Shown here: positions 570 to 52,613 of the stretch, piece by piece
Position numbering within the stretch: the first letter of the stretch is position 1
Layout of the letters: every line of letters starts with the position of its first letter
Origin: a virus
DNA: 53,607 bases
Virus record (IMG/VR): IMGVR_UViG_3300022748_000006
Direction: 5' to 3' (one strand)
Program-made: the position numbers and the translations under genes
Notes under the pieces: model-generated
What the model was told of the DNA's origin: nothing
The model's input: only the letters and a program-made list of their open reading frames with translations
Databases searched by the model: none

Positions 570-586
570 GTGGAGTCCGACTCCAC
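570..586. repeat. Palindrome GTGGAGTCCGACTCCAC (17/17)
   Basis: Perfect 17-bp inverted repeat starting 1 nt after the terL stop codon. Confidence 0.95.
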
Positions 587-7260: not shown

Positions 7261-7272
7261 TTGGAGGATCAC

Positions 7273-10397: not shown

Positions 10398-10425
10398 GGG
10401 GTGGAGTCCGACTCCACCCCTTTTT
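10398..10425 (+). terminator. Intrinsic terminator after the capsid gene, built on the genome-wide palindrome
   Basis: GGGGTGGAGTCCGACTCCACCCC followed by TTTTT, 9 nt after the capsid stop. Confidence 0.85.
10401..10417. repeat. Palindrome GTGGAGTCCGACTCCAC (17/17)
   Basis: Forms the core of the terminator stem. Confidence 0.95.
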
Positions 10426-16084: not shown

Positions 16085-16426
16085 ATGCCACGGTTCCTCA
16101 ACACCGAAGGCAATGCATCAATCGCAATTTTTATTTGCGACCGATGCCGCATGAAGCGGCCTATCATCGAGGCGATGCCTGACCCCAACTTTAGTGGCCT
16201 CAAAGTCTGCCAACAAGGTTGTGCAGATCAAAAAGACCCGTACCGACTGCCTGCACGCAAGACAGAACGGATCGCATTGCAGTATCCTCGTCCAGATGTC
16301 AGCGTTGCCGTAGATCCAAACCAGATTGTGACCACGCCATATGGTGGTGAGGTGCTCAGTACGGAGCAAAATACGGACAATCCAGAGAACGACGGCAACA
16401 ACAGCACCATCAAATTGCAGCCCTGA
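16085..16426 (+). CDS. Small Cys-containing virion-module protein
   Basis: 113-aa ORF with CDRC..CQQGC motifs, immediately upstream of the tail fibre. Confidence 0.6.
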   Translation: MPRFLNTEGNASIAIFICDRCRMKRPIIEAMPDPNFSGLKVCQQGCADQKDPYRLPARKTERIALQYPRPDVSVAVDPNQIVTTPYGGEVLSTEQNTDNPENDGNNSTIKLQP

Positions 16427-16427
16427 G

Positions 16428-18725
16428 ATGTCTTCACAAGTCACCATCACCCAACTTCCACAGGCTCTGCCCCTTTCCGGGCTGGAGTCTGTGCCGATTG
16501 TCCAAAATGGTGTCACTGTCCAGACCACCACGGGCCAAATTGCGGGTTCTCCGAACCTCCAGCAGACGTTTCTGACCGTCAACCGAGAGACATCGCTGCC
16601 AAACAGCCGATATTTCGGTGTTGGATCGGGTCTGAGTCTCGCCGACAACGGCGCTCAAAGCAATTTGGTGTTGAATTTGACCGGGGCGGTGCCGTCCTTG
16701 AACGCAAGTGGAGTCGGACTCCAAGTCAAGACGAACGCAAATACGCTTGTAGGACGCAATTTGGCCGTTGGGAGTGGTCTGGGTATCACCAACGCCGATG
16801 GAGTGCTTGGAAACCCCACCATATCCCTTGGGACGACCCTTGCCAACGTGGCGGCGCTATCAGGGACGGGCATGCTGGCCATCAATGGCACGAATTTCAC
16901 GCCATTGACGCTTGCCGGGGTCTCTGGACAGGTCGTTGTGACCAATGGAAATGGTGCTGCAGGCGCTCCGACGTTTGGGCTGGCCACCACAGCGGTCACC
17001 CCGGGCACGTATTCGTCCGCGACATTCACCGTTGACGCCTATGGGCGCTTGACGTCAGCCACAAGCGGTGTTGCCGGGGGCGTGACGTTCTTCAGCGGCG
17101 GCACAACTGGCCTGACTCCAGCCACGCCAACTGCTGGATCGATCACCTTGGGCGGTGTTTTGGTGGTGGCCAATGGCGGCACTGGTGCCTCGACCCTGAC
17201 TGGATACGTCAAGGGCAACGGCACATCGGCGATGACTGCCTCGACGACGGTTCCTACCACGGATCTGAGTGGAACCATCTCCAATACCCAATTGGCCAAC
17301 TCGTCTATCGTGATCAATGGTACGACAGTCAGTTTGGGCGGCTCAATCAGCGTGGGCACAGTGACTTCGGTTACGGCCACAGCGCCAGTGGTGTCATCCG
17401 GTGGATCGACACCCGTGATCAGCATGGCCGCAGCCAGTGCAACATCGAACGGATACCTGACGTCGACAGACTGGTCGATATTTAATGGCAAAGGGGCCGG
17501 ATCGGTGACCTCTGTGGGTGGCACGGGGACGGTCAGCGGCATCACTTTAACTGGCACCGTCACCACCACCGGAAACTTGACACTGGGCGGGACTTTGGCC
17601 GTGACGCCATCGAACTTCTCAACTCAGACGGCCAACTATGTGTTGGCAGGGCCAACAACTGGTGCGGCAGCCACTCCAACATTTCGGGCTTTGGTGGCCG
17701 CAGACATCCCCGCGCTTCCATATGGCACGGGCACAGTTACGAACGTGTCGGCGCTCACAATTGGAACGACTGGCACTGACCTGAGTTCGACTGTTGCCAA
17801 CAGCACGACAACACCAGTCATTACGCTGAACGTGCCCACAGCATCCGCAACGAACCGTGGAGCCTTGAGTGCTGCTGATTGGACGACGTTCAACAACAAG
17901 CAACCCGCTGGGTCTTATCTCACTGCAGTGTCTGTTGCATCTGCAAATGGGTTTGCAGGCACATCAAGCGGCGGATTGACTCCAGCCTTGACGCTGTCCA
18001 CGTCAATTTCTGGTTTGCTGTTTGGCAACGGTACCGCTCTGGCTGCCGCAACGATCAGTGCGCCCTTGGCGTACTCTGCTGGTACCTTGAGCATCACTCA
18101 GGCCACCACCAGCACAAACGGCTATCTGAGCAGCACAGACTGGAACACGTTCAACAACAAGCAGCCTGCAGGCGCATACTTGACTGCGGTGACAGCAGAT
18201 GCACCCCTGACAGGATCTGGCACGTCTGCAAGTCATTTGAGCATGCCTGCAGCCACTTCGCTGGTGAGCGGATATTTGACGTCGACAGACTGGAACACAT
18301 TCAACAGCAAGGGTTCTGGGTCTGTGACTTCTGTGGCGGCGACTGTGCCGTCCTTCTTGTCGATTTCCGGCAGTCCAATCACTACCAGTGGAACCTTGGC
18401 CATCACCTACTCGGGTACGGCGCTGCCTGTTGCAAACGGCGGAACTGGAGCAACAACACTGTCTGGTCTGGCCTATGGGAATGGCACGAGCGCATTCACG
18501 GCGGCAACTGCGGCTCAAGTCGTTTCGGTGATCGGAACAACTGCGGTCACGAATGCCACCAATGCCACCAACACGGCGATCACGGCAAACTCCACCAACG
18601 CAACCAACTACCTGACTTTTGTCAGTGCCACTACCGGAAATCTCCCTCCGTTGGTAAACTCTTCGATAACCTGCAACCCCTCTACAGGCCAGATCACTGG
18701 CGGCGTAGCAGGTGGCTCTTTCTAA
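16428..18725 (+). CDS. Tail fibre protein 1
   Basis: ORF track 16341..18725 trimmed to ATG 16428 (MSSQVTITQLPQA..). Repeated G(Y/A)LSxxDWxxFNxK and ANGGTGA motifs. Ends in GGSF. Confidence 0.8.
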   Translation: MSSQVTITQLPQALPLSGLESVPIVQNGVTVQTTTGQIAGSPNLQQTFLTVNRETSLPNSRYFGVGSGLSLADNGAQSNLVLNLTGAVPSLNASGVGLQVKTNANTLVGRNLAVGSGLGITNADGVLGNPTISLGTTLANVAALSGTGMLAINGTNFTPLTLAGVSGQVVVTNGNGAAGAPTFGLATTAVTPGTYSSATFTVDAYGRLTSATSGVAGGVTFFSGGTTGLTPATPTAGSITLGGVLVVANGGTGASTLTGYVKGNGTSAMTASTTVPTTDLSGTISNTQLANSSIVINGTTVSLGGSISVGTVTSVTATAPVVSSGGSTPVISMAAASATSNGYLTSTDWSIFNGKGAGSVTSVGGTGTVSGITLTGTVTTTGNLTLGGTLAVTPSNFSTQTANYVLAGPTTGAAATPTFRALVAADIPALPYGTGTVTNVSALTIGTTGTDLSSTVANSTTTPVITLNVPTASATNRGALSAADWTTFNNKQPAGSYLTAVSVASANGFAGTSSGGLTPALTLSTSISGLLFGNGTALAAATISAPLAYSAGTLSITQATTSTNGYLSSTDWNTFNNKQPAGAYLTAVTADAPLTGSGTSASHLSMPAATSLVSGYLTSTDWNTFNSKGSGSVTSVAATVPSFLSISGSPITTSGTLAITYSGTALPVANGGTGATTLSGLAYGNGTSAFTAATAAQVVSVIGTTAVTNATNATNTAITANSTNATNYLTFVSATTGNLPPLVNSSITCNPSTGQITGGVAGGSF
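16708..16724. repeat. Palindrome copy GTGGAGTCGGACTCCAa (16/17)
   Basis: Inside tail fibre 1, read as SGVGLQ. Confidence 0.9.
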
Positions 18726-21822: not shown

Positions 21823-22291
21823 GGAATACGAAGTCCGCATCTGGGGCTTTGTCGTGATTGTGGTGATGCTGGTGTTTGCTGGCATCACAGGGGCCATGCT
21901 GTACTCCGTGATCTTTGTTGTGCAGCCCATCAAGACGATGGCTCCGATTGATCAGGCCTTTACCAAGATGCTCAACGACATCGTCCTACTGATCGTGGGT
22001 GGTATTGGCGGCATCATGGCCAAAAAGGGTGTGGGAGCCATGTCGGAAAAGCTGGCTGGGCCACCCCCTGCACCGCAGGCCACAATGCCTTCCGGGGCAA
22101 CCATGCCTCCAGTACCTCAGCCAGTACCAGTTACCGCTCCTTCCACGCCCAACTGGAACTGGATGGGCTACCAAAACCCCACTTTGGATGAAAGCTGGAC
22201 GCCCGGCCCACCACCCACAACTCCACCAGATCATCAAGAGCCTGACGAAGACCGTCTGTCCCTTGCAATTGCCCGTCAAGAGGTGAATTGA
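21776..22291 (+). CDS. Two-TM membrane protein with Pro-rich tail (holin candidate)
   Basis: ORF track 21614..22291 trimmed to ATG 21776 after TGGAGA. Two hydrophobic helices. Overlaps the lipoprotein gene by 47 nt in another frame. Confidence 0.5.
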   Translation: MFKLNNQHPKPRLTAEEYEVRIWGFVVIVVMLVFAGITGAMLYSVIFVVQPIKTMAPIDQAFTKMLNDIVLLIVGGIGGIMAKKGVGAMSEKLAGPPPAPQATMPSGATMPPVPQPVPVTAPSTPNWNWMGYQNPTLDESWTPGPPPTTPPDHQEPDEDRLSLAIARQEVN

Positions 22292-22761
22292 TGTTCGGGG
22301 TACCTCTGCCCTACGCAGCCCTTGGAGGCCTCTTGCTGGCCCTTCTGGCCTATTTCACGGGCCATCACAAGGGCTGGGCCGAACGTGACGCTGAAATGCA
22401 GGTGGAAATCGCCAAAAAGAACGAAGAAGCCCGGAACACGGAAATCAAACTAAATGCACAGGTTAATGCAAGTGCAGTTCAACTACAGGAGGCCAATAAT
22501 GTCATTGACCAAAAATCAATTGCTCTTACTGCTGCCATTCGCGCTGGCCGGGTGCGGCTCCCAGCCCCAAGTTGTGTACAAACCACCCCAAGTGCCCCCG
22601 CTGCCGCCCCAAATCCAGAAGATGGAGCCGAATCTGACCGACAGACTCTCCTCCTTATTGCTCAACTCGCCGCAGACGGGGACAAAGCCATCACTCAACT
22701 CAACGCCTGCATTGACGCCTACACAGCCGTCCGGGAGCAAATAAATGGCAGTAACCGCTGA
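22288..22761 (+). CDS. Rz: i-spanin (Rz-like)
   Basis: 157 aa with an N-terminal TM and a coiled-coil periplasmic part. It contains the embedded lipoprotein ORF. Confidence 0.8.
   Translation: MMFGVPLPYAALGGLLLALLAYFTGHHKGWAERDAEMQVEIAKKNEEARNTEIKLNAQVNASAVQLQEANNVIDQKSIALTAAIRAGRVRLPAPSCVQTTPSAPAAAPNPEDGAESDRQTLLLIAQLAADGDKAITQLNACIDAYTAVREQINGSNR
22499..22744 (+). CDS. Rz1: o-spanin (Rz1-like) embedded in Rz, +1 frame
   Basis: ORF track 22454..22744 trimmed to ATG 22499, 6 nt after CAGGAGG. Lipobox LAGC, with a Pro-rich mature part. Confidence 0.8.
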   Translation: MSLTKNQLLLLLPFALAGCGSQPQVVYKPPQVPPLPPQIQKMEPNLTDRLSSLLLNSPQTGTKPSLNSTPALTPTQPSGSK

Positions 22762-23347
22762 ACAACTTGCCAAAATTGGAGTCGGACTCCAGTGGGTCGA
22801 CCCGCTGAACGAGACTTTCCAGCGTTTTAGCATAGTGACTCCACGTGAGCAGGCCATGTTTATTGGTCAGTGTGCCCACGAATGCGGCAACTTCAGTGTT
22901 CTGGAGGAGAATCTGAATTACCGTGCGGCCACCCTGATGCGGGTCTGGCCAAAGCGCTTTCCTACGCTGGAAGTCGCCAACGCCTATGCCGGGAACCCCA
23001 AAAAGATCGCCAATTTGGTCTACGCGAACCGCATGGGCAACCGCGACGAGGCTTCCGGGGACGGCTACCGATTCCGAGGCCGTGGCTGCATCCAGTTGAC
23101 TGGCTCGGCCAACTATTACCACGCTGGTAAGGCTTTGGGGGTGGATCTCATCATGAATCCCGATCTGGTGGCCACACCCAAGTACGCAGCCCTGACAGCC
23201 GGGTTTTTCTGGTCAACCCATGGGCTGAACGCTTTGGCTGAAGCCGGGGACGATTTGGGCTGCTGCAAGCGGATCAACGGTGGTACCCTTGGACTCGATG
23301 ACCGGAAACACCGCACCCAGCAGGCACTTGCCGTCCTGACGGCCTAA
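22745..23347 (+). CDS. Endolysin, glycoside hydrolase family 19 (chitinase-like)
   Basis: Motifs FIGQCAHECGNF and YRFRGRGCIQLTGSANY are typical of GH19 phage lysins. No signal sequence. Confidence 0.9.
   Translation: MAVTAEQLAKIGVGLQWVDPLNETFQRFSIVTPREQAMFIGQCAHECGNFSVLEENLNYRAATLMRVWPKRFPTLEVANAYAGNPKKIANLVYANRMGNRDEASGDGYRFRGRGCIQLTGSANYYHAGKALGVDLIMNPDLVATPKYAALTAGFFWSTHGLNALAEAGDDLGCCKRINGGTLGLDDRKHRTQQALAVLTA
22776..22792. repeat. Palindrome copy tTGGAGTCGGACTCCAg (15-bp core perfect)
   Basis: Inside the endolysin N-terminus, read as IGVGLQ. Confidence 0.9.
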
Positions 23348-27204: not shown

Positions 27205-27437
27205 TGATTTCATACGACCCTCGCGGCATGGATTGGCCACAGTACAACAAGCTGATGGCCGAACTGTTTGCGCCAAACGAGTTGGGCTATGTACCGGAAG
27301 AACGCTGGCGCGAGTGGGTCGATGGCATGAACGGCATCGGGTATTTTGGACAGTCTGCAATTCCTGACCAGCGCATGTGCGCAACATGGCAGGAGTGGGC
27401 AGAACAAATGGTCGGCATCATGAGTATCGGTGCTTGA
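27204..27437 (+). CDS. Hypothetical protein
   Basis: 77-aa ORF with a TAATG overlap. Confidence 0.6.
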   Translation: MISYDPRGMDWPQYNKLMAELFAPNELGYVPEERWREWVDGMNGIGYFGQSAIPDQRMCATWQEWAEQMVGIMSIGA

Positions 27438-27447
27438 GGAAAAGAAT

Positions 27448-29943
27448 ATGATGATCAGCAATTTTCCCAACTTGATTGCGGCTGAGGACGACGGAACAGA
27501 CGCGCCCGTAACAAAAGCTGGCTCTCTTGCGGCAGCACAAGCAGCAGCCAAAAGAGAGGCGGCTGCTCAGGCTCAAGCGGCAGCACAAAAAGCTGCTCAA
27601 GACAAATTAGCTCAACAGATTCTTGGTTCAAGCGACACATCAAAGTGGAGCGGTGAAGGCTTTGGTTCGGCTCAGGCCAACGCTGCCGACATGGCCAAGA
27701 TCCTGAATAGTATCGGCATCACGGACATCAATCAGTTTGGTCAGATTACAAAGCAAGTTCCAACGTATGATGAAGACGGGAATCAGTCTGGTACTCAAAC
27801 GGTAACAACCTATGGCAACAAAGTAACTGGACAAGAAGTTCCCAACACATACAGCGAACGCCAGACAGGCAACGCTTGGGGTGGAACATTTGCGGGTTCT
27901 GGCAACACTGGCTACCGTGTGCAGTTCGATGCACAGGGCAATCCGATGTTCTATACAACCGGGGCGTCCAGCAGTGACTTGGGTGCAATTGCTCCCTTGC
28001 TTGCGATTGCCTCGATCATTCCATCTCCAATTCAGCCTTTTGCCGCTGCAGCCAATGCTGCTGTGGCCGCAAGCAATGGCAACGTCTTAGGTGCTCTGGC
28101 GTCTGTGGCAGGCATTCCCGGAGCCAGTGAGGCACTGAGCAGCATTCCGGGCGTGAGCGATGCCATGAGTGCCGTCAAAACAGCCAACCAAGTACAAAAC
28201 ACGGTTAAGGCAATAGAGTCTGGTAACGCTCTTGGCGCACTGTCTGGTGCCGCTGGCTTGACTGGAACTGGTGGGACTGAAATTGGTGACACTGGAGTCA
28301 CAGTCTCTGGTGCGCTCAAGGCCGCAAACTTGGCAAATGCAATATCCTCCTCCAATCCAAACGCAATCATCTCTGCCGCCTCAGGCATGATTGGCGGATT
28401 GCCAAAAACAGACAGCAATGCTCCTATGGATGCGGAGGGATTGTCCCAACTTGATCCAGAAGAGCGTGCGGCATACGACAAAGGCGGAATGCAGGGCCTC
28501 AGAGACTACGTTGCCTCGAAAAAAGCTGAGGCAAACGATACGTTAACCCCAGAAACAACACCCACTTCAGTTTCTGGAACAGAATCTGCTGCGCCACCTC
28601 TTTCGTCTGAGACTCAAGTCGCTTCAACTCAGTCACCGCTAGAAAATACGACTTCCACTGCACCTCAAGAGCCACAGCCCAGTGTGGAAATTACAGCACC
28701 TTTGTCCAGTGCGCCAGAGGTCATTTACGAGCCAGTGGTGAGCAAGTTTGTTCCATCAGAAGATACCGAAAAAAATCTTCTTCCAGAACTGAACAATGTG
28801 GTGGTCACGGCACCAAAACAAACCGACAACACGAATGTGGAGCCTTCCGCCCCATTAAATAATCCTGTCGAGAACCCTTTAACGGACAATGTTCCAAACA
28901 TTGAAATCACAGCGCCTCGCATCAGTACGCCTGAAATAACCTATGAGCCAAAGGTTGATACCTTCACGCCTACTGAGACGATTGATACGACAACACCACC
29001 CTCTTCAACCCCTTCAACCCCAAAAACTCCGTCGACTCCATCGACCACAAAGACCACAACAACAGGCGGATTGCCAAGCACCACGCCATCAAAGCTGACT
29101 GCGACTCCATTGGATTCTTCGCCTCAGATGCTCAAGGCGGCACCCATTCAACAGCAAAACCCAGCACGTATGGCAGAACTCCATCAGCTTTATCAATCAT
29201 TGACTCCTGAAATCAAGGCTGCTTTGGCCACACACGGCATTGAAGAGCCTCAAGTCAACAAAGTGGAGTCCGACTCCGCTCCGACTTTCATGGCTGATGG
29301 TGGCTCGGCCTACCAGACCGCTGTTGATGCCATGTCACCAAGGTGGGCACCTGCCGCCAAAATTTTCCTTGAGGCAGCACCTGTGGTTGAACAAAAGCCT
29401 CGACTTGGTGCCCTGACGCACCTGTCTCAGGGCGTCCTGAAGGGCGCGAGACAGCTTGGAGGACTTGCCCATGGGGGTCTGCCCAACAAGTACGAAGAAG
29501 CGGCTCCAAAGGGCCATAAACCCGAATTCATCACGGGTCTGACCGGGTACTATGCCCATGGCGATGGCACGGGTCAGTCCGATGACATTCCGGCCATGCT
29601 ACATGAAGGCGATTTTGTTGTGGACGCAGAGGCTGTTTCTGCCCTTGGTGACGGCTCCAGCAAGGCTGGCGCTGAAGTTCTGTCCAAGTTCCAGCACCAG
29701 ATCCCCCACCGTGATGGTGGCCCGGCACACGGCAAGCCCGTGGCGGCCAAGATCGCTGATGGTGAGTACGTTTTCCCAGAAGCATTTGTCACAGCCCTTG
29801 GAGGCGGCGATAATAAGGCCGGATCTAAGTTGCTGGACGGGATGCGCAAAGAACTGCGAGAGCACAAGCGCTCCGCATCCATCAACAAAATTCCACCCAA
29901 AGCGAAAAGCCCACTTGATTACCTCAAGATGGCGAAAGGTTAA
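27448..29943 (+). CDS. Internal virion/ejection-type protein 1
   Basis: ORF track 27430..29943 trimmed to ATG 27448 after GAGGA. 831 aa. Ala/Gln-rich N-terminus, a Thr/Pro/Ser mucin-like linker and duplicated GDFVVDAEAVSALGDG / GEYVFPEAFVTALGGG units. Confidence 0.7.
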   Translation: MMISNFPNLIAAEDDGTDAPVTKAGSLAAAQAAAKREAAAQAQAAAQKAAQDKLAQQILGSSDTSKWSGEGFGSAQANAADMAKILNSIGITDINQFGQITKQVPTYDEDGNQSGTQTVTTYGNKVTGQEVPNTYSERQTGNAWGGTFAGSGNTGYRVQFDAQGNPMFYTTGASSSDLGAIAPLLAIASIIPSPIQPFAAAANAAVAASNGNVLGALASVAGIPGASEALSSIPGVSDAMSAVKTANQVQNTVKAIESGNALGALSGAAGLTGTGGTEIGDTGVTVSGALKAANLANAISSSNPNAIISAASGMIGGLPKTDSNAPMDAEGLSQLDPEERAAYDKGGMQGLRDYVASKKAEANDTLTPETTPTSVSGTESAAPPLSSETQVASTQSPLENTTSTAPQEPQPSVEITAPLSSAPEVIYEPVVSKFVPSEDTEKNLLPELNNVVVTAPKQTDNTNVEPSAPLNNPVENPLTDNVPNIEITAPRISTPEITYEPKVDTFTPTETIDTTTPPSSTPSTPKTPSTPSTTKTTTTGGLPSTTPSKLTATPLDSSPQMLKAAPIQQQNPARMAELHQLYQSLTPEIKAALATHGIEEPQVNKVESDSAPTFMADGGSAYQTAVDAMSPRWAPAAKIFLEAAPVVEQKPRLGALTHLSQGVLKGARQLGGLAHGGLPNKYEEAAPKGHKPEFITGLTGYYAHGDGTGQSDDIPAMLHEGDFVVDAEAVSALGDGSSKAGAEVLSKFQHQIPHRDGGPAHGKPVAAKIADGEYVFPEAFVTALGGGDNKAGSKLLDGMRKELREHKRSASINKIPPKAKSPLDYLKMAKG
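29263..29279. repeat. Palindrome copy GTGGAGTCCGACTCCgC (16/17)
   Basis: Inside internal protein 1, read as KVESDS. Confidence 0.9.
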
Positions 29944-34528: not shown

Positions 34529-34995
34529 ACGATTCCCCAGTCTTCACAAAGCATGTCGGATTGCGATGCAACCCAAGGCATGAACTGATCATCCACAGTT
34601 TTGATTCCCACCCATGGACGGCCATCTAGCAATTCCAGACCTCGCGTGGTCTCCCAGTGCGAGGCCGGGATCAAGTGCAGCCACATCCCCTTGCCATTCC
34701 AGCCCTTCCGAGCCACCTTGTGGCCCATTTTGAGCGCTTCCAAGGCCATGCTGAAGGTCAGGCAGTCTGCAGGCCTGTAGGCCTTCTCAAACACTTCCTT
34801 GGGCGACCACGAAATGTAGCCCTTGAAGTTGGGGTGATTGGCTTGGCCACCGTCAACGTACTCGACGAGGTACCCGGCGTCATCACCATTCTCGTCAGCA
34901 GGGAGTTCCCAGCCTCGGAGGATGTTGTACGCCGCACGGGTCATGTCGATGGCGTTGATCAGCTTGGTGCCGATATACGGCTTCATGTCGCTCAT
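34525..34995 (-). CDS. DUF2829-type (Tad2-like) protein with N-terminal extension
   Basis: The C-terminal half LEALKMGHKVARKGWNGKGMWL..PWVASQSDMLCEDWGIV matches the DUF2829 signature (ALxxGxxVARxGWNGKGM..PW..SQxDxLAEDWxI). Confidence 0.7.
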   Translation of the reverse strand: MSDMKPYIGTKLINAIDMTRAAYNILRGWELPADENGDDAGYLVEYVDGGQANHPNFKGYISWSPKEVFEKAYRPADCLTFSMALEALKMGHKVARKGWNGKGMWLHLIPASHWETTRGLELLDGRPWVGIKTVDDQFMPWVASQSDMLCEDWGIV

Positions 34996-35002
34996 GGTTT
35001 CC

Positions 35003-35926: not shown

Positions 35927-35935
35927 ATTGACACC

Positions 35936-36103
35936 TCAAAACATTCCAAACCAAACGCAAGTTCCGTGGATGCAGCCAACGGGGAACACGATGGTCCCAA
36001 TGAGCAACAGAATCCACTTGGCGCTGCTGATGCAGGTGACCACATGGGTGAGCCATGCAAGGCCCACCCACGCGACCACGCTCAAACTGAGTAGGTCGCC
36101 CAT
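35936..36103 (-). CDS. Small two-TM membrane protein (55 aa)
   Basis: Not in the track. ATG lies 6 nt after GGAG. MGDLLSLSVVAWVGLAWL..ILLLIGTIVFPVGCI. Stops 10 nt before the SPFH start. Confidence 0.5.
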   Translation of the reverse strand: MGDLLSLSVVAWVGLAWLTHVVTCISSAKWILLLIGTIVFPVGCIHGTCVWFGMF

Positions 36104-36106
36104 GGA

Positions 36107-36313
36107 TTACTCCACGCCGGGCAGTTCTTGCTGCTCGGGGTTCTTGTAGTTCTCCACAGTCACACCTGCGGTCATCAACTCCACCAGATCAGTCTGGGAC
36201 GCCACATGGGCGTGGATGGTGTTGTGTGCCACATGGGCAATTGCTTGGGACTTGGTGTTTGCGTTCACCAGACGGATGCCGCTAGGGCCACCAACTACAT
36301 AAATACGTGCCAT
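36107..36313 (-). CDS. Hypothetical protein (68 aa)
   Basis: ORF track 36107..36457 trimmed to MARIYVVGG (TAATCATG junction with the upstream gene). Confidence 0.6.
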   Translation of the reverse strand: MARIYVVGGPSGIRLVNANTKSQAIAHVAHNTIHAHVASQTDLVELMTAGVTVENYKNPEQQELPGVE

Positions 36314-36315
36314 GA

Positions 36316-37122
36316 TTAGACTCCAAAACGATTTTTCAATTTCCAAAAGGACAGCAAAGACTGGAACATGCTCCAGCCGCGCTGCAGGTCGTCTTCGCTC
36401 CATTCCTTGATCTTTACAAGACCGGGATGCGAAACGGAAGCAAAGACGTTTGCACACCGTGCATTGGGCATACCTACACCCACTCGGTAGGAACTCAACT
36501 GCATGAGGTGTTCGTCATACGCCGGGACTTCATCGTCGGGGCCAAACTCTTTGGTTTTGGCGTCCAACATGATGCCCACGGGCGCAGATTCATCAGGTCG
36601 GGTGAAGAGGTCAGTCTTCCCGCCAAAGCCCAGAGGATGGGCAAAAGACACTTCCGTCTCCCATTTCTGGAAGGGGTGCGTTTTGAAGTGATTGAAGATG
36701 GCCTCCTCGACTGCCTGAGCAATCTCGACGTGCTCCACATCACGTTTGCCCCCGTACCATGATTCGATGGATTCATGGACTCGGGTGCCACGCTCTGCAG
36801 CGGCCTTGGCGGTGGCTTTGGAGTCCATCACCACACGGGCGATGAATTCCTTCTCCGACTCGCCATCGACGCGAGGAAGGGTGAGTGCTGCCAGCAGCAG
36901 TTGCTCATTCTTCCAGACGTCCAGACCGGGCTTTGCAGCCACTTTCATCACGGTGGTGACCGAGGGCACCAGATTCAGCTTTCGTGCGTCCCTGAGGGTC
37001 GTAGGACGGTCTGAGCCATCCTTGGCCTTCACGGTGTACTGAGGCTGGCCGTCGTCACCGCGATACCAGTGGACAGATTCGGCTGCGCGAACAATGATGG
37101 TCATTTGTTCTCCTTGAGTCAA
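36316..37122 (-). CDS. PD-(D/E)XK exonuclease (YqaJ/Cas4-like recombination nuclease)
   Basis: 268 aa. GGKTDLF .. IMLDAKTK is a D..(D/E)xK-type core. Adjacent to the SSB gene. Confidence 0.7.
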   Translation of the reverse strand: MTQGEQMTIIVRAAESVHWYRGDDGQPQYTVKAKDGSDRPTTLRDARKLNLVPSVTTVMKVAAKPGLDVWKNEQLLLAALTLPRVDGESEKEFIARVVMDSKATAKAAAERGTRVHESIESWYGGKRDVEHVEIAQAVEEAIFNHFKTHPFQKWETEVSFAHPLGFGGKTDLFTRPDESAPVGIMLDAKTKEFGPDDEVPAYDEHLMQLSSYRVGVGMPNARCANVFASVSHPGLVKIKEWSEDDLQRGWSMFQSLLSFWKLKNRFGV

Positions 37123-37124
37123 GC

Positions 37125-37775
37125 CTAAAACGGAATGTCCGAGTCATCTTCATCCATCGCGGGGGCGGCTGGTGCTGCACTTGCTTGCGCTGGTGCTTTG
37201 CCGTTCAGCTTTTCCCACTCGGGCGTGGCCATGATCTTTTTCTTCAGGTTGTCGCTGAAGGTGTTGAACATTTCCATGTCCGGTGTGTCCAACATGAACA
37301 CCTCGTTCTTGTTCACAGCAGTGGGCAGGCCAGCTTGCTTGATCATGGACGGGACAGGGGTGATGCCGTTGACGTTGACATAGGTCTTGCCGTCGTTGCC
37401 TTGCTTCTCGATCACGTTGAGCATGCACCATGCACCCAAGACGGTCTTGAGGTCAAAGCGGCGCATTTCCTCCTGCGAGAAGGGCTTGCCACGCCACGAC
37501 TGAAGGTCAGCACGCAGGTTGGCTTTTTCGGCCCACGACAGGGTGTAGTTCTTGAACATGGCGAACGGGCGACCGTCCTTCATCTTCAGTGCGGCGCCGG
37601 AGTCATCAGAGCCATGGATTTCCCAGCCCAGCATGACTTTGCGCAGGTATTTGACTTGGCCAAGGTACTCAGACTTTTGCGTGCCCAGATCAATGATCCG
37701 GTAGCAGCGTGCCAAGTGCAGGCCCGGGGGTGTGGATTCGAAGGAACCACCTTTGTCTTCAACGTAAAAACTCAT
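37125..37775 (-). CDS. ssb: Single-stranded DNA-binding protein (DUF669-like) with SSB-type acidic tip
   Basis: ORF track 37125..38186 trimmed to MSFYVEDK after GGAG. The C-terminus MDEDDSDIPF mirrors the bacterial SSB DDDIPF tail. Confidence 0.75.
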   Translation of the reverse strand: MSFYVEDKGGSFESTPPGLHLARCYRIIDLGTQKSEYLGQVKYLRKVMLGWEIHGSDDSGAALKMKDGRPFAMFKNYTLSWAEKANLRADLQSWRGKPFSQEEMRRFDLKTVLGAWCMLNVIEKQGNDGKTYVNVNGITPVPSMIKQAGLPTAVNKNEVFMLDTPDMEMFNTFSDNLKKKIMATPEWEKLNGKAPAQASAAPAAPAMDEDDSDIPF

Positions 37776-37867
37776 CAGAATCTCCAGATAAAAATGTCCA
37801 TCAGGACAACAACAAGGCCAACGGCGCAAACGGTCAAAAGCACTTTGTCGTGCAAGTCGTAATCCAT
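37775..37867 (-). CDS. Candidate 30-aa membrane peptide, first ORF of the leftward operon
   Basis: MDYDLHDKVLLTVCAVGLVVVLMDIFIWRF. GGAG lies 6 nt upstream. TGATG coupling to ssb. Below the track threshold. Confidence 0.35.
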   Translation of the reverse strand: MDYDLHDKVLLTVCAVGLVVVLMDIFIWRF

Positions 37868-37879
37868 AACAGACTCCTA

Positions 37880-37925
37880 ACAACGGCAACATCGCCGTGC
37901 CCGAACTATAACATGAAATTAGATT
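37880..37925 (-). promoter_or_regulatory. Leftward early promoter/operator/leader (fourth copy of the conserved module)
   Basis: The minus strand reads ATCTAATTTCATGTTATAGTTCGGGCACGGCGATGTTGCCG. This gives a TCTAA-N7-TTATA dyad, a TGT-TATAGT extended -10 and a leader hairpin ACGGC/GCCGT. Confidence 0.55.
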
Positions 37926-37935
37926 GCCAAGCAAG

Positions 37936-37963
37936 TTGCTCAAACAAAAAGTTTTGGTACACT
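37936..37963 (+). promoter_or_regulatory. Candidate rightward promoter for the cro-like gene
   Basis: TTGCTC-N16-TACACT. The predicted start is within a few nt of ATG 37972, and no SD is present, so the mRNA may be leaderless. Confidence 0.35.
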
Positions 37964-37971
37964 GCAGGCTC

Positions 37972-38175
37972 ATGACATTGACCGAATACTTCAGCACTGA
38001 ACCCCGGGGGGGCAAATCAGAGATGGCCGAGTACCTGCGCATCACGCCCACATGGCTGGGCCTGATCATGCGTGGCGCTCGGAAGGCCTCGCCGGAGTTG
38101 TGCGTCCGCATCGAACGCGCCACCGGGGGACTGGTGACGCGAGAAGAGTTGCGCCCTGACATTTTCATGGTGTAA
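37972..38175 (+). CDS. cro: Cro/YdaS-type helix-turn-helix regulator
   Basis: ORF track 37924..38175 trimmed to MTLTEYF. GGKSEMAEYLRITPTWLGLIMRG..RIERATGGLVTREELRPD matches the YdaS/Cro HTH pattern. Divergent from the leftward operon. Confidence 0.75.
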   Translation: MTLTEYFSTEPRGGKSEMAEYLRITPTWLGLIMRGARKASPELCVRIERATGGLVTREELRPDIFMV

Positions 38176-38210
38176 GATTTCAACATCGCTTGGCGGCGAT
38201 TTAAGAGTAA

Positions 38211-38290
38211 GCCCTTGGGGCACGTCTGCAGGTTACTCGCCTGTCCGCCAATTCAGCGAAAGCTGAAAGACGTGCGCCAAGGGCTTTTTT
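38211..38290 (+). terminator. Long structured terminator/attenuator between cro and the ParB-like gene
   Basis: GCCCTTGGGGCACGTC (38211..38226) pairs with GACGTGCGCCAAGGGC (38269..38284) with one mismatch, followed by T6. It encloses TTCAGC-GAAA-GCTGAA (38252..38267). Confidence 0.5.
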
Positions 38291-38306: not shown

Positions 38307-39119
38307 ATGACAAGAATGGTGAGACTGGATCAGATCCGCCTTGATGGCGGCACTCAGTTCCGAGACCAGATTGACCAGAACACGGTCAAGCACTACACAG
38401 ACTGCATGCGCGACGGCGCAGAGTTCCCGGCAGTCAAATGCACCTTCGATGGTGTGAACTACTGGCTCTGGGATGGATTTCACCGTTACTTTGCAAGCCA
38501 AGCTGTGGGGTTCAAAGAGATTCTGGTGGACTACAAGCCCGGCACCATGGAGGACGCGCAGGACTTGGCTCTGAGCGCCAACGGCAAGCACGGCCTGCCA
38601 CGCAACACGGCCACCAAGCGCAAGCAAGTGGAGACCGCCCTGTCGATGGAGCGCCACAAAGACAAGTCCGACCGTGAGATTGCCAAGCTGTGCGATGTGT
38701 CTCACACCTTCGTGGCCAGCGTGCGAAACCCCGAGGTCAAGGATCGCCAGAACAAAAACCGTGACGCCTCTGCGGCCAAGAAAGTGGAGTCGGACTCCAC
38801 CCTGAAGGCTGGTGATGTTGTTCCAAACCAACAAGTGGAGTCGGACTCCACCGACCCCAAGGTGTCCCTGACTCAGGACTACGGCCCAGACGCCGACGAA
38901 CTCAAGGCGATGGAACTGGCCGAGCAGGCTGACCGTGACGCCATGTACAAGATGCTGGAGTCTGACGATGCTCTGGCCACTGCGGTCAAAGAAATCGAGC
39001 GCCTGAACTTCCTGAATGCTCAAATGGAGATTCGGATCACCGCCCTGATGAACGAAAAAAATGCCGCCGTCAAGATGGTGAAAGACCTTGAGAAGCAACT
39101 GAAGAAAGCCAAAAAATGA
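38307..39119 (+). CDS. ParB/Srx-superfamily N-terminal domain protein (orphan ParB-like)
   Basis: 270 aa. VRLDQIRLDGGTQFR and WLWDGFHRYFAS are ParB-N box-like. An HTH-like segment (DREIAKLCDVSHTFV), a linker holding two palindromes and a C-terminal coiled coil. Confidence 0.75.
   Translation: MTRMVRLDQIRLDGGTQFRDQIDQNTVKHYTDCMRDGAEFPAVKCTFDGVNYWLWDGFHRYFASQAVGFKEILVDYKPGTMEDAQDLALSANGKHGLPRNTATKRKQVETALSMERHKDKSDREIAKLCDVSHTFVASVRNPEVKDRQNKNRDASAAKKVESDSTLKAGDVVPNQQVESDSTDPKVSLTQDYGPDADELKAMELAEQADRDAMYKMLESDDALATAVKEIERLNFLNAQMEIRITALMNEKNAAVKMVKDLEKQLKKAKK
38784..38800. repeat. Palindrome GTGGAGTCGGACTCCAC (17/17)
   Basis: Inside the ParB-like linker, read as KVESDST. Confidence 0.95.
38835..38851. 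repeat. Palindrome GTGGAGTCGGACTCCAC (17/17)
   Basis: Second copy 51 bp downstream, read as QVESDST. Confidence 0.95.
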
Positions 39120-40645
39120 CTGAAGTCCTAGCACAGCGAGTGTGTGATGATGGATCGACCTTCCCTCCTCCACGCCCCTTCCAACTCGATGCCCACCAAC
39201 AACTCCGTCAGGGGTTTAAGGCTGGCCACAAGAATCAAATTATTTGCGCCCCCACTGGGGCTGGGAAGACCTACCTTGGCCTGCGGATCTGCAACGAGGC
39301 CATGCAAAAGGGCAAACGTGCCGTGTTCCTGTGTGATCGCACCACGCTGATCAACCAGACCTCTGCTGCAGCCGACGGGTATGGCCTGCGTGAGCATGGC
39401 GTGATCCAAGCAAATCACTGGCGTCGCCAGCCCGAGCAGTTGCTGCAGATCGCATCCGCTCAGACAATTGCCAAGCGTGAATACTGGCCACAGCTTGACG
39501 TTCTGGTGGTCGACGAGGCGCACACCCAGATGAAGGTCTGGACTGAGTTCGCCCAGAACACTCAGGCGGCTGTGATCGGACTGTCTGCGACTCCGTTCTC
39601 GGTGGGTCTCGGAAAGATCTTCACGAACCTGATCAACGCCACCACGATGCACGACCTGACCGAGTCCGGTGTGCTGGTGCCCATGCGTATCTTCTCTTGC
39701 ACGAAGCCCGACATGACAGGCGCTGCCACCGCTGGCGGTGAGTGGACGGACAAGGCTGCAGAAGAGCGCGGCATGGACATCGTGGGGGACGTGGTCACTG
39801 AGTGGCTGAAGTTCGCCGAGAACCGCAAGACCATCGTGTTTGGCTCCACGATCAAGCACTGCGAGGAGTTGGCCCAGCAGTTCATCAACCAAGGCGTCAT
39901 GGCCGCTGTGTTCACGTCTGAGACCACCGCCAAGGAGCGTGAAGCCCTGCTGGAGGACTACCGTCGCCCCGACAGCTACATCCGTGTCCTGATCAGCGTG
40001 GAGGCTCTTGCAAAGGGTTTTGACGTACCTGACGTGGGCTGTGTGTGCGATGCACGTCCCCTTCGTAAGTCGCTGTCCACCGCCATCCAGATGTGGGGCC
40101 GTGGTTTGCGCTCGTCGCCCTCCACCGGGAAGAAGGACTGTTACCTGCTCGACTTCAGCGGCAACATCATCCGCTTCGCTGAGGACTTCACCGACGTGTT
40201 TTTCAACGGTCTGGAAAAGCTGGACGACGGCGAGAAGCTGGACAAGAAGATCCGCAAGGACGAAGAGGTCGAGGTGCGTGGGTGCCCCAAGTGCGGCTAC
40301 ACCCCGTTCCACAAGCGCTGCATGGCATGCGGCTACGAAAAGGTGAGCCAGAGTGTGTCTGAGGCGCTACCCGGCCACATGCAGGAAATCACCATCGGCG
40401 AGGGCAAGAACAAAAAGGTGCTGGCCAGCAACGCCGAGAACCTGTGGCACCAGCTTGTGGCCTACGCAAAGATCCACAGCGCCCCTGAAAAGCAGCAGGG
40501 CAGGGCTTACCACCTGTTCAAGAAAATTACTGGCCAAGACCCCATGTGGCGCTTCTCAACGGCACCCGCAGTTGAGATTTCCCGTCACACGTACAACAAG
40601 ATCACGCAACTGAACATGGCGTGGAAGAAGGGGATGCAGAAATGA
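39116..40645 (+). CDS. SF2 DEAD/DEAH-box type DNA helicase with C-terminal zinc ribbon
   Basis: 509 aa. Walker A APTGAGKT, DEAH box VVDEAH and CPKCGY..CMACGY. Confidence 0.85.
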   Translation: MTEVLAQRVCDDGSTFPPPRPFQLDAHQQLRQGFKAGHKNQIICAPTGAGKTYLGLRICNEAMQKGKRAVFLCDRTTLINQTSAAADGYGLREHGVIQANHWRRQPEQLLQIASAQTIAKREYWPQLDVLVVDEAHTQMKVWTEFAQNTQAAVIGLSATPFSVGLGKIFTNLINATTMHDLTESGVLVPMRIFSCTKPDMTGAATAGGEWTDKAAEERGMDIVGDVVTEWLKFAENRKTIVFGSTIKHCEELAQQFINQGVMAAVFTSETTAKEREALLEDYRRPDSYIRVLISVEALAKGFDVPDVGCVCDARPLRKSLSTAIQMWGRGLRSSPSTGKKDCYLLDFSGNIIRFAEDFTDVFFNGLEKLDDGEKLDKKIRKDEEVEVRGCPKCGYTPFHKRCMACGYEKVSQSVSEALPGHMQEITIGEGKNKKVLASNAENLWHQLVAYAKIHSAPEKQQGRAYHLFKKITGQDPMWRFSTAPAVEISRHTYNKITQLNMAWKKGMQK

Positions 40646-41278: not shown

Positions 41279-41528
41279 TCGAGCATGGTTTACCATTGAA
41301 GAGATCAACAAGTGGGCAGACAACTATCACCTCAATGCGATCACAAGAGCGTTGGAGTCGGTTCGCCGATCAGGTCAGCCAGCCGAGATCTCGGGAGCGT
41401 ACATCGAGAACCTTGAGTACGGGTTGGCAACCTTCGAGCAGTTAATCGATGAATTTGACCTGACCTGCAAGTGGGACAAAACCACTGGTCGCTACATCGT
41501 CGAAAAGCCGGGGAGGGCATACAAATGA
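41271..41528 (+). CDS. Hypothetical protein
   Basis: 85-aa ORF. Confidence 0.6.
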   Translation: MNNRAWFTIEEINKWADNYHLNAITRALESVRRSGQPAEISGAYIENLEYGLATFEQLIDEFDLTCKWDKTTGRYIVEKPGRAYK

Positions 41529-42397
41529 CCACTTTCATCGACTTTGCACGCTCACACGGTGTCGACATCGACCCCAGCAAGCTGTACGCCTCCGACAAGA
41601 TCCGTCGCACTGGCACCGTGGAGAAGCCACGCTCTGACAACGGCGCATTCTTTTGGGATGGCCAGCGCGGCTGGGTGTTCAATTGGTCTGGCGAGGCTCG
41701 GACAATCTGGTACGAAGATCCCAATGCCAAGCCATGGACTGAGCAGGAAAAGCAGGAATGGATGCTCAAGCGCCAGACAGCCGCTGCAGCGAAGAATCGT
41801 TCCTACGACATCGCTGCACAGAAGGCTGACATCACCTTGCGCTCGGCCAAGATGGCCACGCACGACTACCTGCACCTCAAAGGCTTTCCTGACCTTCAGG
41901 CGCTGGTGTTGGACGGCAAGCTGCTGGTGCCCATGCGCAACGTCGTGACCAACAAGCTGCAGGGCTACCAGCAGATTTTTTGGGACATGGACGAACGCAA
42001 GTGGGAGAAAAAGATGCTGCCCGGCATGCGTGCCAAGAATGCTGTGCTGTTCATGGGCGACAGAAGGGCCGAGGAGGCGTGGTTGGTCGAAGGGTATGCC
42101 ACGGGCCTGTCCGTGCAGGCAGCGCTGCGTGCAAGCGGTTCTGGTGCGTCTGTGGTGGTTTGCTTCAGTGCTTCGAACCTGATCCAAGTGGCCGACCAGA
42201 TCCCCGGGCGCAAGTTCTGCTTCGCCGACAACGACGCCAGCGAGACGGGCGAGAAGGCTGCAAAGTCTGCCGGATTGCCTTATGCTATGGCCGACACCAT
42301 GGGCTGGGATGCCAATGACCTCCACAAGGCCAAGGGACTGTTTGCGGTGACGGCGAAGATCATGCAGTGCAAGCAGAAAGCTGCTGTACACTCCTGA
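41525..42397 (+). CDS. Toprim-domain DNA primase-like protein
   Basis: ORF track 41471..42397 trimmed to the ATGA-coupled MTTFIDFARSHG. WLVEGYATGLS .. CFADNDASETGEKAA fits the Toprim E..DxD layout. Confidence 0.7.
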   Translation: MTTFIDFARSHGVDIDPSKLYASDKIRRTGTVEKPRSDNGAFFWDGQRGWVFNWSGEARTIWYEDPNAKPWTEQEKQEWMLKRQTAAAAKNRSYDIAAQKADITLRSAKMATHDYLHLKGFPDLQALVLDGKLLVPMRNVVTNKLQGYQQIFWDMDERKWEKKMLPGMRAKNAVLFMGDRRAEEAWLVEGYATGLSVQAALRASGSGASVVVCFSASNLIQVADQIPGRKFCFADNDASETGEKAAKSAGLPYAMADTMGWDANDLHKAKGLFAVTAKIMQCKQKAAVHS

Positions 42398-52073: not shown

Positions 52074-52613
52074 GTGACAGACAAGACAGACAAACCCACA
52101 AAGCAGGCCGCGCCCAAAAACAAGGGTGGCAGACAGTCCACATACGACCCAGACATCGCAAAGCAGATGTGTGAGCAACTCAGTGAGGGAATACCACTGA
52201 GGGAAATATGCAGACAGGATGGGTTCCCAGCGTGGCGGACGGTGTACGACTGGATGAAGAAAGATCCCGACCTTGCCACAGCCATCGCGTATGCGCGTGA
52301 CGTGGGATACGACGCCATGGCCGAGGATTGCTTGGTGATCGCCGACACCCCGATGATGGGGGAAGAGGTGAGCGAGAGCGAGGATGACGAGGGCGTCAAG
52401 CGTGTGACCATCAAGAAGGTGGACATGCTGGGGCACCGCAAGCTGCAGATCGAGACCCGCCTGAAGCTGCTGGCCAAGTTCAACCCCAAGCGTTACGGTG
52501 ACAAGCTGGTGCATGCCGGTGACGACGTCAACCCGGTGGTGGTGGAGAACAACCACAATGTCTTTGGGGAACTCCTCAAGAACCTGAAGATGCAGCGCCA
52601 AGCCGAGCAATGA
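52074..52613 (+). CDS. terS: Terminase small subunit
   Basis: 179 aa with a GTG start after GGAAGGAAG. GGRQSTYDPDIAKQMCEQLSEGIPLREICRQDGFPAWRTVYDWM is a typical HTH N-terminus of this terS class. ATGA-coupled to terL. Confidence 0.8.
   Translation: MTDKTDKPTKQAAPKNKGGRQSTYDPDIAKQMCEQLSEGIPLREICRQDGFPAWRTVYDWMKKDPDLATAIAYARDVGYDAMAEDCLVIADTPMMGEEVSESEDDEGVKRVTIKKVDMLGHRKLQIETRLKLLAKFNPKRYGDKLVHAGDDVNPVVVENNHNVFGELLKNLKMQRQAEQ

Follow-up and report, generated by a model that had tools for sequence, protein, structure and literature searches.

The 53,607-nt stretch of viral DNA held as IMG/VR virus record IMGVR_UViG_3300022748_000006, which we call the window, encodes a ParB-like protein and carries a short palindrome that is repeated both within the gene for this protein and around the rest of the genome; the protein and its palindromes are the subject of this report. 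The last 127 nt of the window are identical to the first 127 nt, indicating a circular assembly and a true genome of 53,480 bp. The ParB-like gene is a real open reading frame (ORF) with an ATG start, and its 270-residue product is organized as follows:

38307..39119, + strand: ParB-like gene; ParB/Srx domain at residues 1-118, helix-turn-helix (HTH) at residues 120-143, linker at residues 158-192, C-terminal coiled coil at residues 193-270

The linker-coding DNA contains two perfect 17-mers, GTGGAGTCGGACTCCAC, spaced 51 bp apart, as the preliminary description of this locus had pointed out, and both are translated in frame as V-E-S-D-S-T (residues 160-165 and 177-182). Written with a variable centre, the 17-bp palindrome is GTGGAGTC-S-GACTCCAC. 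Its 13-bp core, GGAGTC[C/G]GACTCC, is found intact at exactly ten sites in the genome, the number given in that description, and a search allowing up to three mismatches to the 17-mer likewise gave ten sites (20 matches over both strands, with 0.16 expected; none of 100 shuffles equalled this). The ten sites are distributed as follows:

570..586: palindrome, first of a pair spaced 34 bp apart, directly 3' of the large-terminase stop codon
604..620: palindrome, second of the pair, downstream of the large terminase
10401..10417: palindrome 3' of the major capsid gene, with a GGGG/CCCC extension, then TTTTT
16708..16724: palindrome with one mismatch, within the tail-fibre-like gene 16341..18725, read GVGL
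22776..22792: palindrome with two outer mismatches, at the junction of the spanin and endolysin genes
29263..29279: palindrome with one mismatch on its best strand, within the structural gene 27430..29943, read VESDS
38784..38800: in-gene palindrome 1, GTGGAGTCGGACTCCAC, in the ParB-like gene linker, read VESDST
38835..38851: in-gene palindrome 2, GTGGAGTCGGACTCCAC, in the ParB-like gene linker, read VESDST
46888..46904: palindrome in the 3' end of the phrog_1588 gene, with a promoter-like -10 element ~75 nt further downstream
49979..49995: palindrome where ORF 49459..49998 ends (stop codon), with the second promoter-like copy ~58 nt downstream; syntenic in the relative rel56 (see below)

The large terminase gene (52610 to 569) crosses the circle junction, the small terminase gene lies at 52074..52613, and the pair at 570 and 604 sits within a 320-nt intergenic gap 3' of the large terminase. 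The Rz-like spanin gene (22288..22761) and the endolysin gene (22745..23347), at whose junction site 22776 is found, are situated amid structural genes. When each of the two doublets is counted as one locus, the eight loci are spaced more evenly on the circle than random points, as judged by the largest gap (P(max gap <= 9.8 kb) = 0.004) and by the standard deviation of the gaps (P(sd) = 0.003). Some sites are intergenic, and others lie at the ends of genes or within them, where two reading frames are used (ESDS and GVGL). At the centre there is invariably a C or a G, on one strand or the other, and in a close relative this base is flipped at orthologous sites; the sites have no orientation relative to transcription, and their outer mismatches are not wobble pairs. 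The use of two frames, together with the symmetric, flipping centre base, indicates that the constraint acts on double-stranded DNA and is itself symmetric.

Searches with the ParB-like protein gave 1539 homologous matches at E <= 1e-3. In an alignment of 28 sequences the N-terminal domain, the HTH and the C-terminal domain are conserved and the linker is hypervariable, encoding short repeated peptides that differ by lineage and that are, in the DNA, palindromes. The in-gene palindromes of the window are kept in close relatives, and other relatives carry lineage-specific palindromes instead. The relative rel56 (IMGVR_UViG_3300002307_000005, 56.8 kb) has the same motif at eight sites, seven of them syntenic with those of the window, and it also has a pair, of the same motif, at the position of the window's 570/604. 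Homologues without the motif, which the preliminary description had regarded as telling against a pairing of protein and palindrome, do exist: the closest GenBank relative, MW202545, whose ParB-like protein is 50% identical, has no GGAGTCNGACTCC in its genome. It does, however, carry eight copies of a variant of its own, TACTAGTCWGACTAGTA (TACTAGTC-W-GACTAGTA), and two of these lie in the same linker, which strengthens the idea of a cognate pair. As in the window, a doublet in MW202545 directly follows the stop codon of the large terminase. The two genomes have their respective motifs at non-orthologous residues of the tail-fibre gene, suggesting that palindrome sites turn over while their approximate placement is kept.

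The same pattern extends over the family. Palindromes with arms of at least 7 bp are present in nt 400-700 of 47% of 121 distinct ParB-like genes from viral and metagenome contigs; in nt 0-300 of these genes the proportion is 1.7%, and control windows give 4.3%. Their cores are diverse (GGAGTC, GGAATC, GGAGTT, GGAATT, GTAATC, GTAGTC, GTAGTT, GCAGTT, GCGATT, TCGGTT, CTGGTT, GGTAAC and CTAGTC), and distant members have palindromes of 21-23 bp. In all, the sampled family has about 30 distinct cores, many of them among phages with helicases that are 76-93% identical. Outside the gene, a genome's own palindrome is 5.7 times commoner than the palindromes of other genomes (0.13 versus 0.023 per locus, Poisson P = 1e-4; 61 loci, counted within the available 10-kb flanks). 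One orthologous site, in the 3' end of the phrog_1588 gene, has the core GGAGTC in the window and in L178, GGAATC in L003, GTAATC in L014 and GCGATT in L201 and L013, and every time the palindrome is the in-gene one of that genome. A TGGAATCNGATTCCA scan of viral contigs for the sites of L003 was uninformative, the matches listed being mostly chance.

The palindromes change together with particular residues of the HTH. We compared the 270 columns of the protein with the half-site bases, numbered outward from the centre, in 33 non-redundant protein-palindrome pairs, using adjusted mutual information (AMI). The column best associated with every one of bases 3-7 lies in the HTH, encoded as follows:

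38664..38735, + strand: HTH-coding segment KSDREIAKLCDVSHTFVASVRNPE, in which R123, H133, T134 and A137 co-vary with half-site bases

Base 3 is best associated with T134, base 4 with D122, base 5 with H133 (then A137), and bases 6-7 with R123. His133 accompanies G at base 5 (15/0/2/16, Fisher P = 1.5e-7) and T/S134 accompanies G at base 3 (20/2/1/10, P = 7e-6), Pro134 being found with A; R123 goes with an outer GTG and Tyr123 with TAC, and Gly137 goes with T at base 5. AMI values for the HTH columns are 0.5-0.83, and the highest values reached by the Cro-like protein, helicase and primase of these loci are 0.40-0.45. The associations also hold along the phylogeny. Fitch parsimony on a neighbour-joining tree of the N- and C-terminal domains, built without the HTH and linker (64 branches), places amino-acid and base changes on the same branches, with P = 1e-7 to 1e-4:

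R123 and GT at bases 6-7: 5 amino-acid changes, 5 base changes, 5 on the same branch
T/S134 and G at base 3: 10 amino-acid changes, 9 base changes, 7 on the same branch
H133 and G at base 5: 8 amino-acid changes, 7 base changes, 5 on the same branch
G137 and T at base 5: 5 amino-acid changes, 7 base changes, 4 on the same branch

Two cases from outside the sample are in agreement: L369 (R123, D133, K134), with GTGCGATC, fits the residue-base rules, and a distant subfamily with dispersed GGNAACGTTNCC sites retains the link of His133 to GG. Because palindrome and HTH change together in relatives, the palindrome is very probably the site of the ParB-like protein, which we predict to bind it as its cognate partner. 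The pairing put forward in the preliminary description thus gains, as a prediction, from the HTH-base covariation and from the way in which dispersed copies follow the in-gene copies.

Some relatives show other arrangements. L121+L146 (IMGVR_UViG_3300011710_000003) and L137 (IMGVR_UViG_3300031088_000785), both unrelated to the window at the nucleotide level, have ParB-like proteins with near-identical N- and C-terminal parts that differ by an exchanged HTH and linker module; the linker of L121+L146 contains two palindrome types (GGAGTC twice, plus GGTGTAATCCGATTACACC), and L137 combines a P-P recognition helix with GGAGTC sites that include two dispersed copies. In L199, L200, L202 and L222, a 17-bp palindrome, AAGGTGTCNGACACCTT, overlaps the recognition-helix codons (K-V-S-D-T-F, approximately residues 129-139), and no dispersed copies of it were seen in the flanks of these four loci. 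The distant subfamily members L029, L043, L053, L049 and L034 have no in-gene palindrome, and in their flanks identical 12-bp palindromes, GGCAACGTTGCC, GGAAACGTTTCC, GGTAATATTACC and GCAAACGTTTGC, are repeated several kb apart. A search of 185,579 species genomes returned three homologues, all in metagenome-assembled genomes of the Burkholderiales, which suggests this order as the host clade; homologues are abundant in viromes instead. L369 (NCJK01000006.1, positions 7144-7950 of a 129-kb contig of a Burkholderiales metagenome-assembled genome) has a 23-bp palindrome in its linker. Only its ParB-like gene resembles the window in the 18 kb compared, with no window-like helicase, and it may represent a different mobile element or a binning artefact.

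The domain composition proposed in the preliminary description (a ParB/Srx domain, an HTH and a C-terminal coiled coil) is borne out by profile and structural comparisons. The protein matches PHROG 1033, 'ParB-like partition protein', with E = 6e-18. A Pfam identification failed, PF02195 (ParB_N) giving no match to the protein itself at E <= 1; this family is recorded for many homologues that are 57-64% identical to it and is matched at E <= 1e-3 by 2 of the 86 homologues of alignment A2. Its Pfam and NCBIfam matches to KLRAQ and Terminase_4 were dismissed as coiled-coil noise. In the AlphaFold model (mean predicted local distance difference test score, pLDDT, 75.5), the N-terminal alpha-beta domain is mostly at 83-92, the HTH helices span residues 122-129 and 133-140, and long C-terminal helices span 196-269. 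The only low-confidence segment, 158-192 (pLDDT below 50), is disordered and contains both palindromes. Foldseek comparison with the PDB retrieved ParB of Caulobacter, Myxococcus and Bacillus, Noc, KorB, pNOB8 ParB-N and sulfiredoxin with probability 1.0, and also PadC; the alignments with ParB, Noc, KorB and pNOB8 ParB-N run over approximately 140-177 positions that correspond to the N-terminal domain and HTH. A sequence-profile search of the PDB matched sulfiredoxin (1.4e-5) and Myxococcus ParB (7e-5). The C-terminal domain is not the canonical ParB C-terminal domain, and has a weak match to a Pfam coiled-coil family.

Alignment with Myxococcus ParB allows the nucleotide pocket to be compared residue by residue. 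Box I is kept, with TQFR aligned so that Q17 corresponds to Q52 and R19 to R54. DGFHRYFA aligns with the GERRWRA box, and D56-G57-F58-H59-R60 also aligns with GCHR of sulfiredoxin; in this box II (GERR to GFHR), ParB E93 is replaced by F58 and R94 by H59, and R95 is kept as R60. In box III (ENLQR to SANGKH), the Glu is replaced by A91 and the Arg by H95, with N92 kept. D13, G14, T16, Q17, R19, G57-F62 and N92 are invariant across the aligned family (28 homologues). Judged by these alignments, the phosphate-binding core of the ParB/Srx fold is kept. The residues replaced in boxes II and III are those needed for hydrolysis of cytidine triphosphate (CTP) in ParB. The preliminary description had envisaged a clamp and called for a check of the CTP-binding residues. 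The clamp proposal fares less well: box I is in place, but GFHR and SANGKH stand where the hydrolysis residues should be, and a place for the protein in the CTP-clamp class, at best a possibility, is in part contradicted by these substitutions.

That no ParA is encoded, as the preliminary description had also stated, was corroborated by a six-frame search of the genome, in which Walker-A motifs were found only in the helicase and the large terminase, and by PHROG scans of the early and middle genes, which detected neither a ParA nor an integrase. A ParA-interaction motif has been defined as [LFI]G[KR]G[LFI] in a recent survey (PMC12704722), and this motif is not present in the 270-residue protein. 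Since an adjacent ParA and the interaction motif were both looked for and both found wanting, the locus is, on its gene content, not a ParABS partition system.

Instead of a ParA, the ParB-like gene is followed by two genes with predicted replication functions:

39116..40645, + strand: SF2 (ResIII/DEAD) helicase (PHROG 16, E = 5e-79; Pfam ResIII and Helicase_C)
41525..42397, + strand: primase (Toprim; PHROGs 2249 and 510; Pfam Toprim_3)

In the sequence ATGA, the helicase start codon and the ParB-like stop codon overlap. In 100 of 120 loci a helicase homologue starts between -50 and +400 nt from the ParB-like stop, even where helicase identity is 33-40%, and in most loci a primase match lies ~2.3 kb downstream of the ParB-like gene start. 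Gene order and overlap thus indicate that the ParB-like gene, SF2 helicase and primase form a widely conserved, translationally coupled cassette. The C-terminal domain (RI..LMNEKN) has a distribution of its own, being found in 156 cluster representatives and nearly always at the C-terminus of proteins of 250-330 residues, where it is joined to N-terminal modules of this ParB type, of the ParB type of phage AP1 (IDGWHRY), or to DUF3102, FtsK-gamma or winged HTH modules. Examples on non-ParB modules, an 'AYARQAKD' type among them, include P0173, P0211-P0213, P0216, P0221, P0223, P0224, P0234, P0235 and others. In phage AP1 and in L229-L231, whose helicase is 83% identical to that of the window, the N-terminal module has been exchanged and the C-terminal domain and cassette are retained; AP1 has an integrase, and its ParB-like gene belongs to another subfamily. 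On this domain distribution the ParB-like protein appears to have the architecture of an adaptor, in which a variable reader of a DNA address is coupled to a constant partner-binding module.

Several palindromes lie close to elements that resemble transcription signals. A promoter-like repeat, TTCGTGTTAGAATTC, is matched four times against 0.59 expected:

46964..46978, + strand: promoter-like repeat TTCGTGTTAGAATTC, exact copy, with the extended -10 element TGnTAGAAT
50038..50052, + strand: promoter-like repeat TTCGTGTTAGAATTC, second exact copy
43580-43594, + strand, and 37903-37917, - strand: the other two copies, the minus-strand variant being in the divergent early region

Both exact copies have TTAGGG ahead of them and a palindrome (46888 or 49979) 58-75 nt upstream. 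Site 10401, 3' of the capsid gene, is the 11-bp stem of a terminator-like hairpin followed by U5 (RNA fold -20.5 kcal/mol, z = -4.8), and pairs of palindrome copies can fold into long hairpins. This proximity to promoter-like and terminator-like elements suggests a regulatory role, and a generic sigma-70 promoter and terminator scan of 37-53.6 kb gave counts at background. A branched hairpin at 38205-38290 (-50.7 kcal/mol, z = -5.6), followed by six U, separates a YdaS/Cro-like gene (37924..38175) from the ribosome-binding site ahead of the ParB-like gene, and may be a terminator or attenuator that gates the ParB-like/helicase/primase cassette. Further upstream, a leftward module at 34525-38186 (- strand) opposes the otherwise unidirectional genome and contains phrog_862, whose function is unknown, together with phrog_872, a lipoprotein and a PD-(D/E)XK-type exonuclease. 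Most close relatives have the module in syntenic position, and it is probably a recombination module; as recombination functions the genome encodes an exonuclease, RuvC and an endonuclease VII-like protein.

Taken as a whole, these observations are in our judgment best explained, with somewhat better than even confidence, by an orphan ParB-fold reader of palindromes that is tied to replication. The ParB-like protein would bind GTGGAGTC-S-GACTCCAC as a dimer through its HTH, with the outer G-T-G read by R123, at the start of the first HTH helix; base 5 from the centre by H133, where the recognition helix begins; and G at base 3 by T/S134, Pro134 going with A instead. The central C/G pair, being symmetric, would be free to flip. 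It would occupy approximately eight roughly even loci, two of them doublets, so that the whole 53-kb chromosome would carry binding sites. The C-terminal coiled coil would be a portable effector module, and because it travels with the downstream SF2 helicase and primase, the protein may tether or load the phage replication machinery, or organize replication, at the palindromes. The in-gene doublet could be a cis-linked loading, origin or autoregulatory site, and promoters and terminators in the vicinity would probably be affected secondarily. The specific role of a replication or organization adaptor we hold only tentatively, as a possibility falling a little short of an even chance; this role and that of a KorB-like regulator are not mutually exclusive.

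A number of findings weigh against this explanation or parts of it. About half of the family is without a long in-gene palindrome; phage AP1 has none, nor is any palindrome repeated in the 50 kb of it that were examined, from which it follows that the palindrome system is not universal to the cassette. No 40-nt stretch with a GC content of 35% or less, as might serve for unwinding, is found inside the ParB-like gene, the nearest AT-rich DNA being the divergent promoter region 37760-37920; the cumulative GC-skew minimum near 36-41 kb is weak; and an SF2 helicase is not the typical replicative helicase. The eight further sites besides the in-gene pair count against a simple origin. The replacement of the CTP-hydrolysis residues (E93, R94 and the Glu of ENxxR) makes clamp-like sliding doubtful. 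The recognition rules also have exceptions, namely L137 (P-P helix with GGAGTC), L030 (E-S with GGAATC) and L216 (H-T with GGAAAC). Finally, the HTH and palindrome are only ~60-150 bp apart, and a joint swap by recombination could have caused some of the co-switching; such a module swap nonetheless still requires the dispersed sites to follow, and the HTH is the sole coding part of that module.

The most substantial of the rival explanations, though on balance an unlikely one, is that the protein is a global transcription regulator or silencer, of the KorB/VirB type or resembling an L5 stoperator system, which represses, insulates or times the rightward unit and whose link to the helicase is one of operon position only. 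KorB, with 12 palindromic operators with a central G/C on the 60-kb plasmid RK2, offers a precedent, as do VirB and BisD, which are ParB-like regulators acting without ParA. Of the eight loci, five or six coincide with gene boundaries, and the sites ahead of the two exact extended -10 elements with TTAGGG, the terminator-like stem at 10401 and the intergenic pair at 570/604 also speak for such a regulator. Sites 16708, 29263, 38784 and 38835, however, are deep within genes, the promoter-like copies at 43580 and 37903 have no adjoining palindrome, the generic promoter scan does no better than background, and regulation leaves the tight helicase-primase cassette and the portable C-terminal domain unexplained. 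The cassette is also awkward for a centromere serving a plasmid-like or carrier state, in which a host ParA or attachment to the nucleoid would segregate the genome in the manner of prophage N15, which has four dispersed SopB-binding palindromes. The ParB fold, the dispersed palindromic sites and the lack of an integrase among the scanned genes would suit a centromere, but the gene is embedded in a replication cassette, the genome encodes no ParA, the protein has no ParA-interaction motif, no repressor or lysogeny module was identified except the YdaS/Cro-like gene, and the three homologues in species genomes are all from metagenome-assembled ones, against an abundance in viromes; we regard this explanation as very unlikely.

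An equally slight chance attaches to a site-specific nuclease or nickase that cuts at the palindromes, for example priming recombination-dependent replication or producing T5-like nicks. ParB/Srx domains of the DGxHR type have historically been annotated as nucleases, the N-terminal pocket residues are invariant across the aligned family, the regular spacing recalls nick maps, and an exonuclease, RuvC and an endonuclease VII-like protein are at hand in the genome. No catalytic metal-binding motif was identified in the protein, though, its nearest structures are DNA-binding ParB proteins and sulfiredoxin and not nucleases, and cutting palindromes in the phage's own essential genes would need tight control. 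Least probable of all, to the point of being barely credible, is that the palindromes have nothing to do with the ParB-like protein and are hairpins or terminators, selfish repeats, or targets of another factor (the Cro-like protein, the small terminase or a host protein). The terminator-like character of site 10401, the capacity of paired copies to form long hairpins and the position of one pair beside the terminase genes speak for it. Against it, the copies of one genome share one sequence and whole lineages replace all of them together, and the two reading frames point to a DNA-level constraint. RNA hairpins or terminators were rejected as a general explanation, given that a U-tract is present only at 10401 and that the sites have no orientation, a flipping G/C centre and outer mismatches that do not wobble. 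The columns of the Cro-like protein, helicase and primase co-vary with the palindrome much less than does the ParB-like HTH, and the Cro/YdaS-like neighbour was rejected as the binder: its maximum AMI is 0.45 versus 0.73-0.83, and it was undetected beside several distant relatives that keep in-gene palindromes (L025, L027 and L121+L146). Avoidance or targeting by restriction-modification was also rejected. GAGTC is the PleI/MlyI site and GANTC the CcrM/HinfI site, and GAGTC, GACTC and the other GANTC words occur at the expected frequency, so that no restriction avoidance is indicated by a GAGTC that is not depleted.

A more far-reaching version of the favoured explanation, in which a palindrome reader is tied to replication, is that in a large and so far undescribed protein family a ParB fold without ParA, and possibly without CTP hydrolysis, has become a programmable address reader, with a private palindrome for each lineage and with its portable C-terminal module coupling the addresses to the phage helicase and primase. 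We put this forward as speculation and think it rather unlikely. If it were true, a few HTH residues would set a private 15-23-bp palindrome per phage lineage, kept at roughly even intervals round the chromosome and in the gene of its reader; rapid specificity switching would create replication or organization 'incompatibility groups' with respect to co-infecting relatives, satellites and decoy defences; and the function served would be genome-wide self-recognition of phage DNA, not partition.

According to the recent survey mentioned above (PMC12704722, PNAS 2025), phages and mobile elements commonly encode orphan proteins of the ParB fold, for which CTP, ATP or GTP are possible ligands. The passages of it consulted here describe no cognate DNA sites, genome-wide motif or helicase-primase cassette for a similar family, and in the literature searched we found no description of this ParB-like family, its sites or its cassette. 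Nor did that literature, taken with these passages of PMC12704722, give cognate sites, a target-site set or a function for any phage orphan ParB-fold protein. The present family offers a small chromosome with evenly spaced sites throughout, a constant genetic association with a helicase-primase pair, and a recognition code that can be tested directly (outer GTG for R123, G at base 5 for H133 and, at base 3, G for T/S134 but A for P134), for which the ~30 distinct palindrome cores of the sampled genes provide plentiful natural specificity variants. From it one could learn how the ParB fold operates in the absence of ParA, and perhaps of CTP hydrolysis, how freshwater Burkholderiales phages start or organize replication, and why sites often sit in the gene of their binder. 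ParB/parS pairs are already in use as DNA-labelling or tethering tools, and orthogonal protein-site pairs from this family would serve the same ends.

Among known systems, several resemble the one described here in part. In the sites of N15 SopB, as in the window, several palindromes for a ParB-family protein are dispersed over a phage genome, but N15 has a ParA of its own, SopA, and persists stably as a plasmid prophage, whereas the window is without ParA or an evident lysogeny module. The stoperators of L5 and the inverted repeats of phiC31 are likewise present in ~10-30 motif copies recognized by one phage HTH protein; their binders, however, are immunity repressors of temperate phages without a ParB fold, and the stoperators are asymmetric and oriented with transcription, in contrast to the symmetric, orientation-independent sites of the window. 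The lambda O/ori-lambda, P22 gp18 and SPP1 G38P/oriL systems are initiators with the origin in their own gene. Like these lambda O-type initiators, the ParB-like protein has sites in a translated linker between DNA-binding and predicted partner-recruiting domains, its gene is directly upstream of helicase/primase functions, and specificity types are exchanged between related phages. It differs from them in its ParB N-terminal domain and HTH fold, in having one or two palindromes in place of at least four tandem iterons, in the lack of an adjacent AT-rich element, in its eight other sites, and in the half of its family that has no in-gene site; Pfam, PHROG and NCBIfam searches gave no homology of the ParB-like protein to the lambda O N-terminal domain or to replisome organizers.

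Closer likenesses are found among the ParB relatives. Noc of Bacillus subtilis is, like the phage protein, an orphan ParB paralogue without its own ParA that has many dispersed palindromes and marks a whole chromosome. Noc has in addition an N-terminal membrane-targeting helix, binds the membrane in a CTP-dependent manner and controls cell division, whereas in the phage protein, whose gene belongs to a replication cassette, nothing precedes the ParB N-terminal domain (MTRMVRLDQIRLDGG). The OB operators of KorB, approximately a dozen copies of TTTAGC-S-GCTAAA, are spread over the ~60-kb RK2, some promoter-proximal and some far from promoters, so that KorB shares with the phage protein a ParB fold with an HTH and one odd-length, central-G/C palindrome dispersed over a replicon. 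KorB has a ParA partner (IncC), a co-repressor (KorA), a different C-terminal dimerization domain and an intact GERR/ENxxR pocket; the phage system has no ParA, GFHR and SANGKH in the pocket, a C-terminal coiled coil, two in-gene sites and a fixed position upstream of the helicase-primase. By analogy, then, the ParB-like protein would work most like KorB or Noc, as an orphan ParB-fold binder of dispersed palindromic sites.

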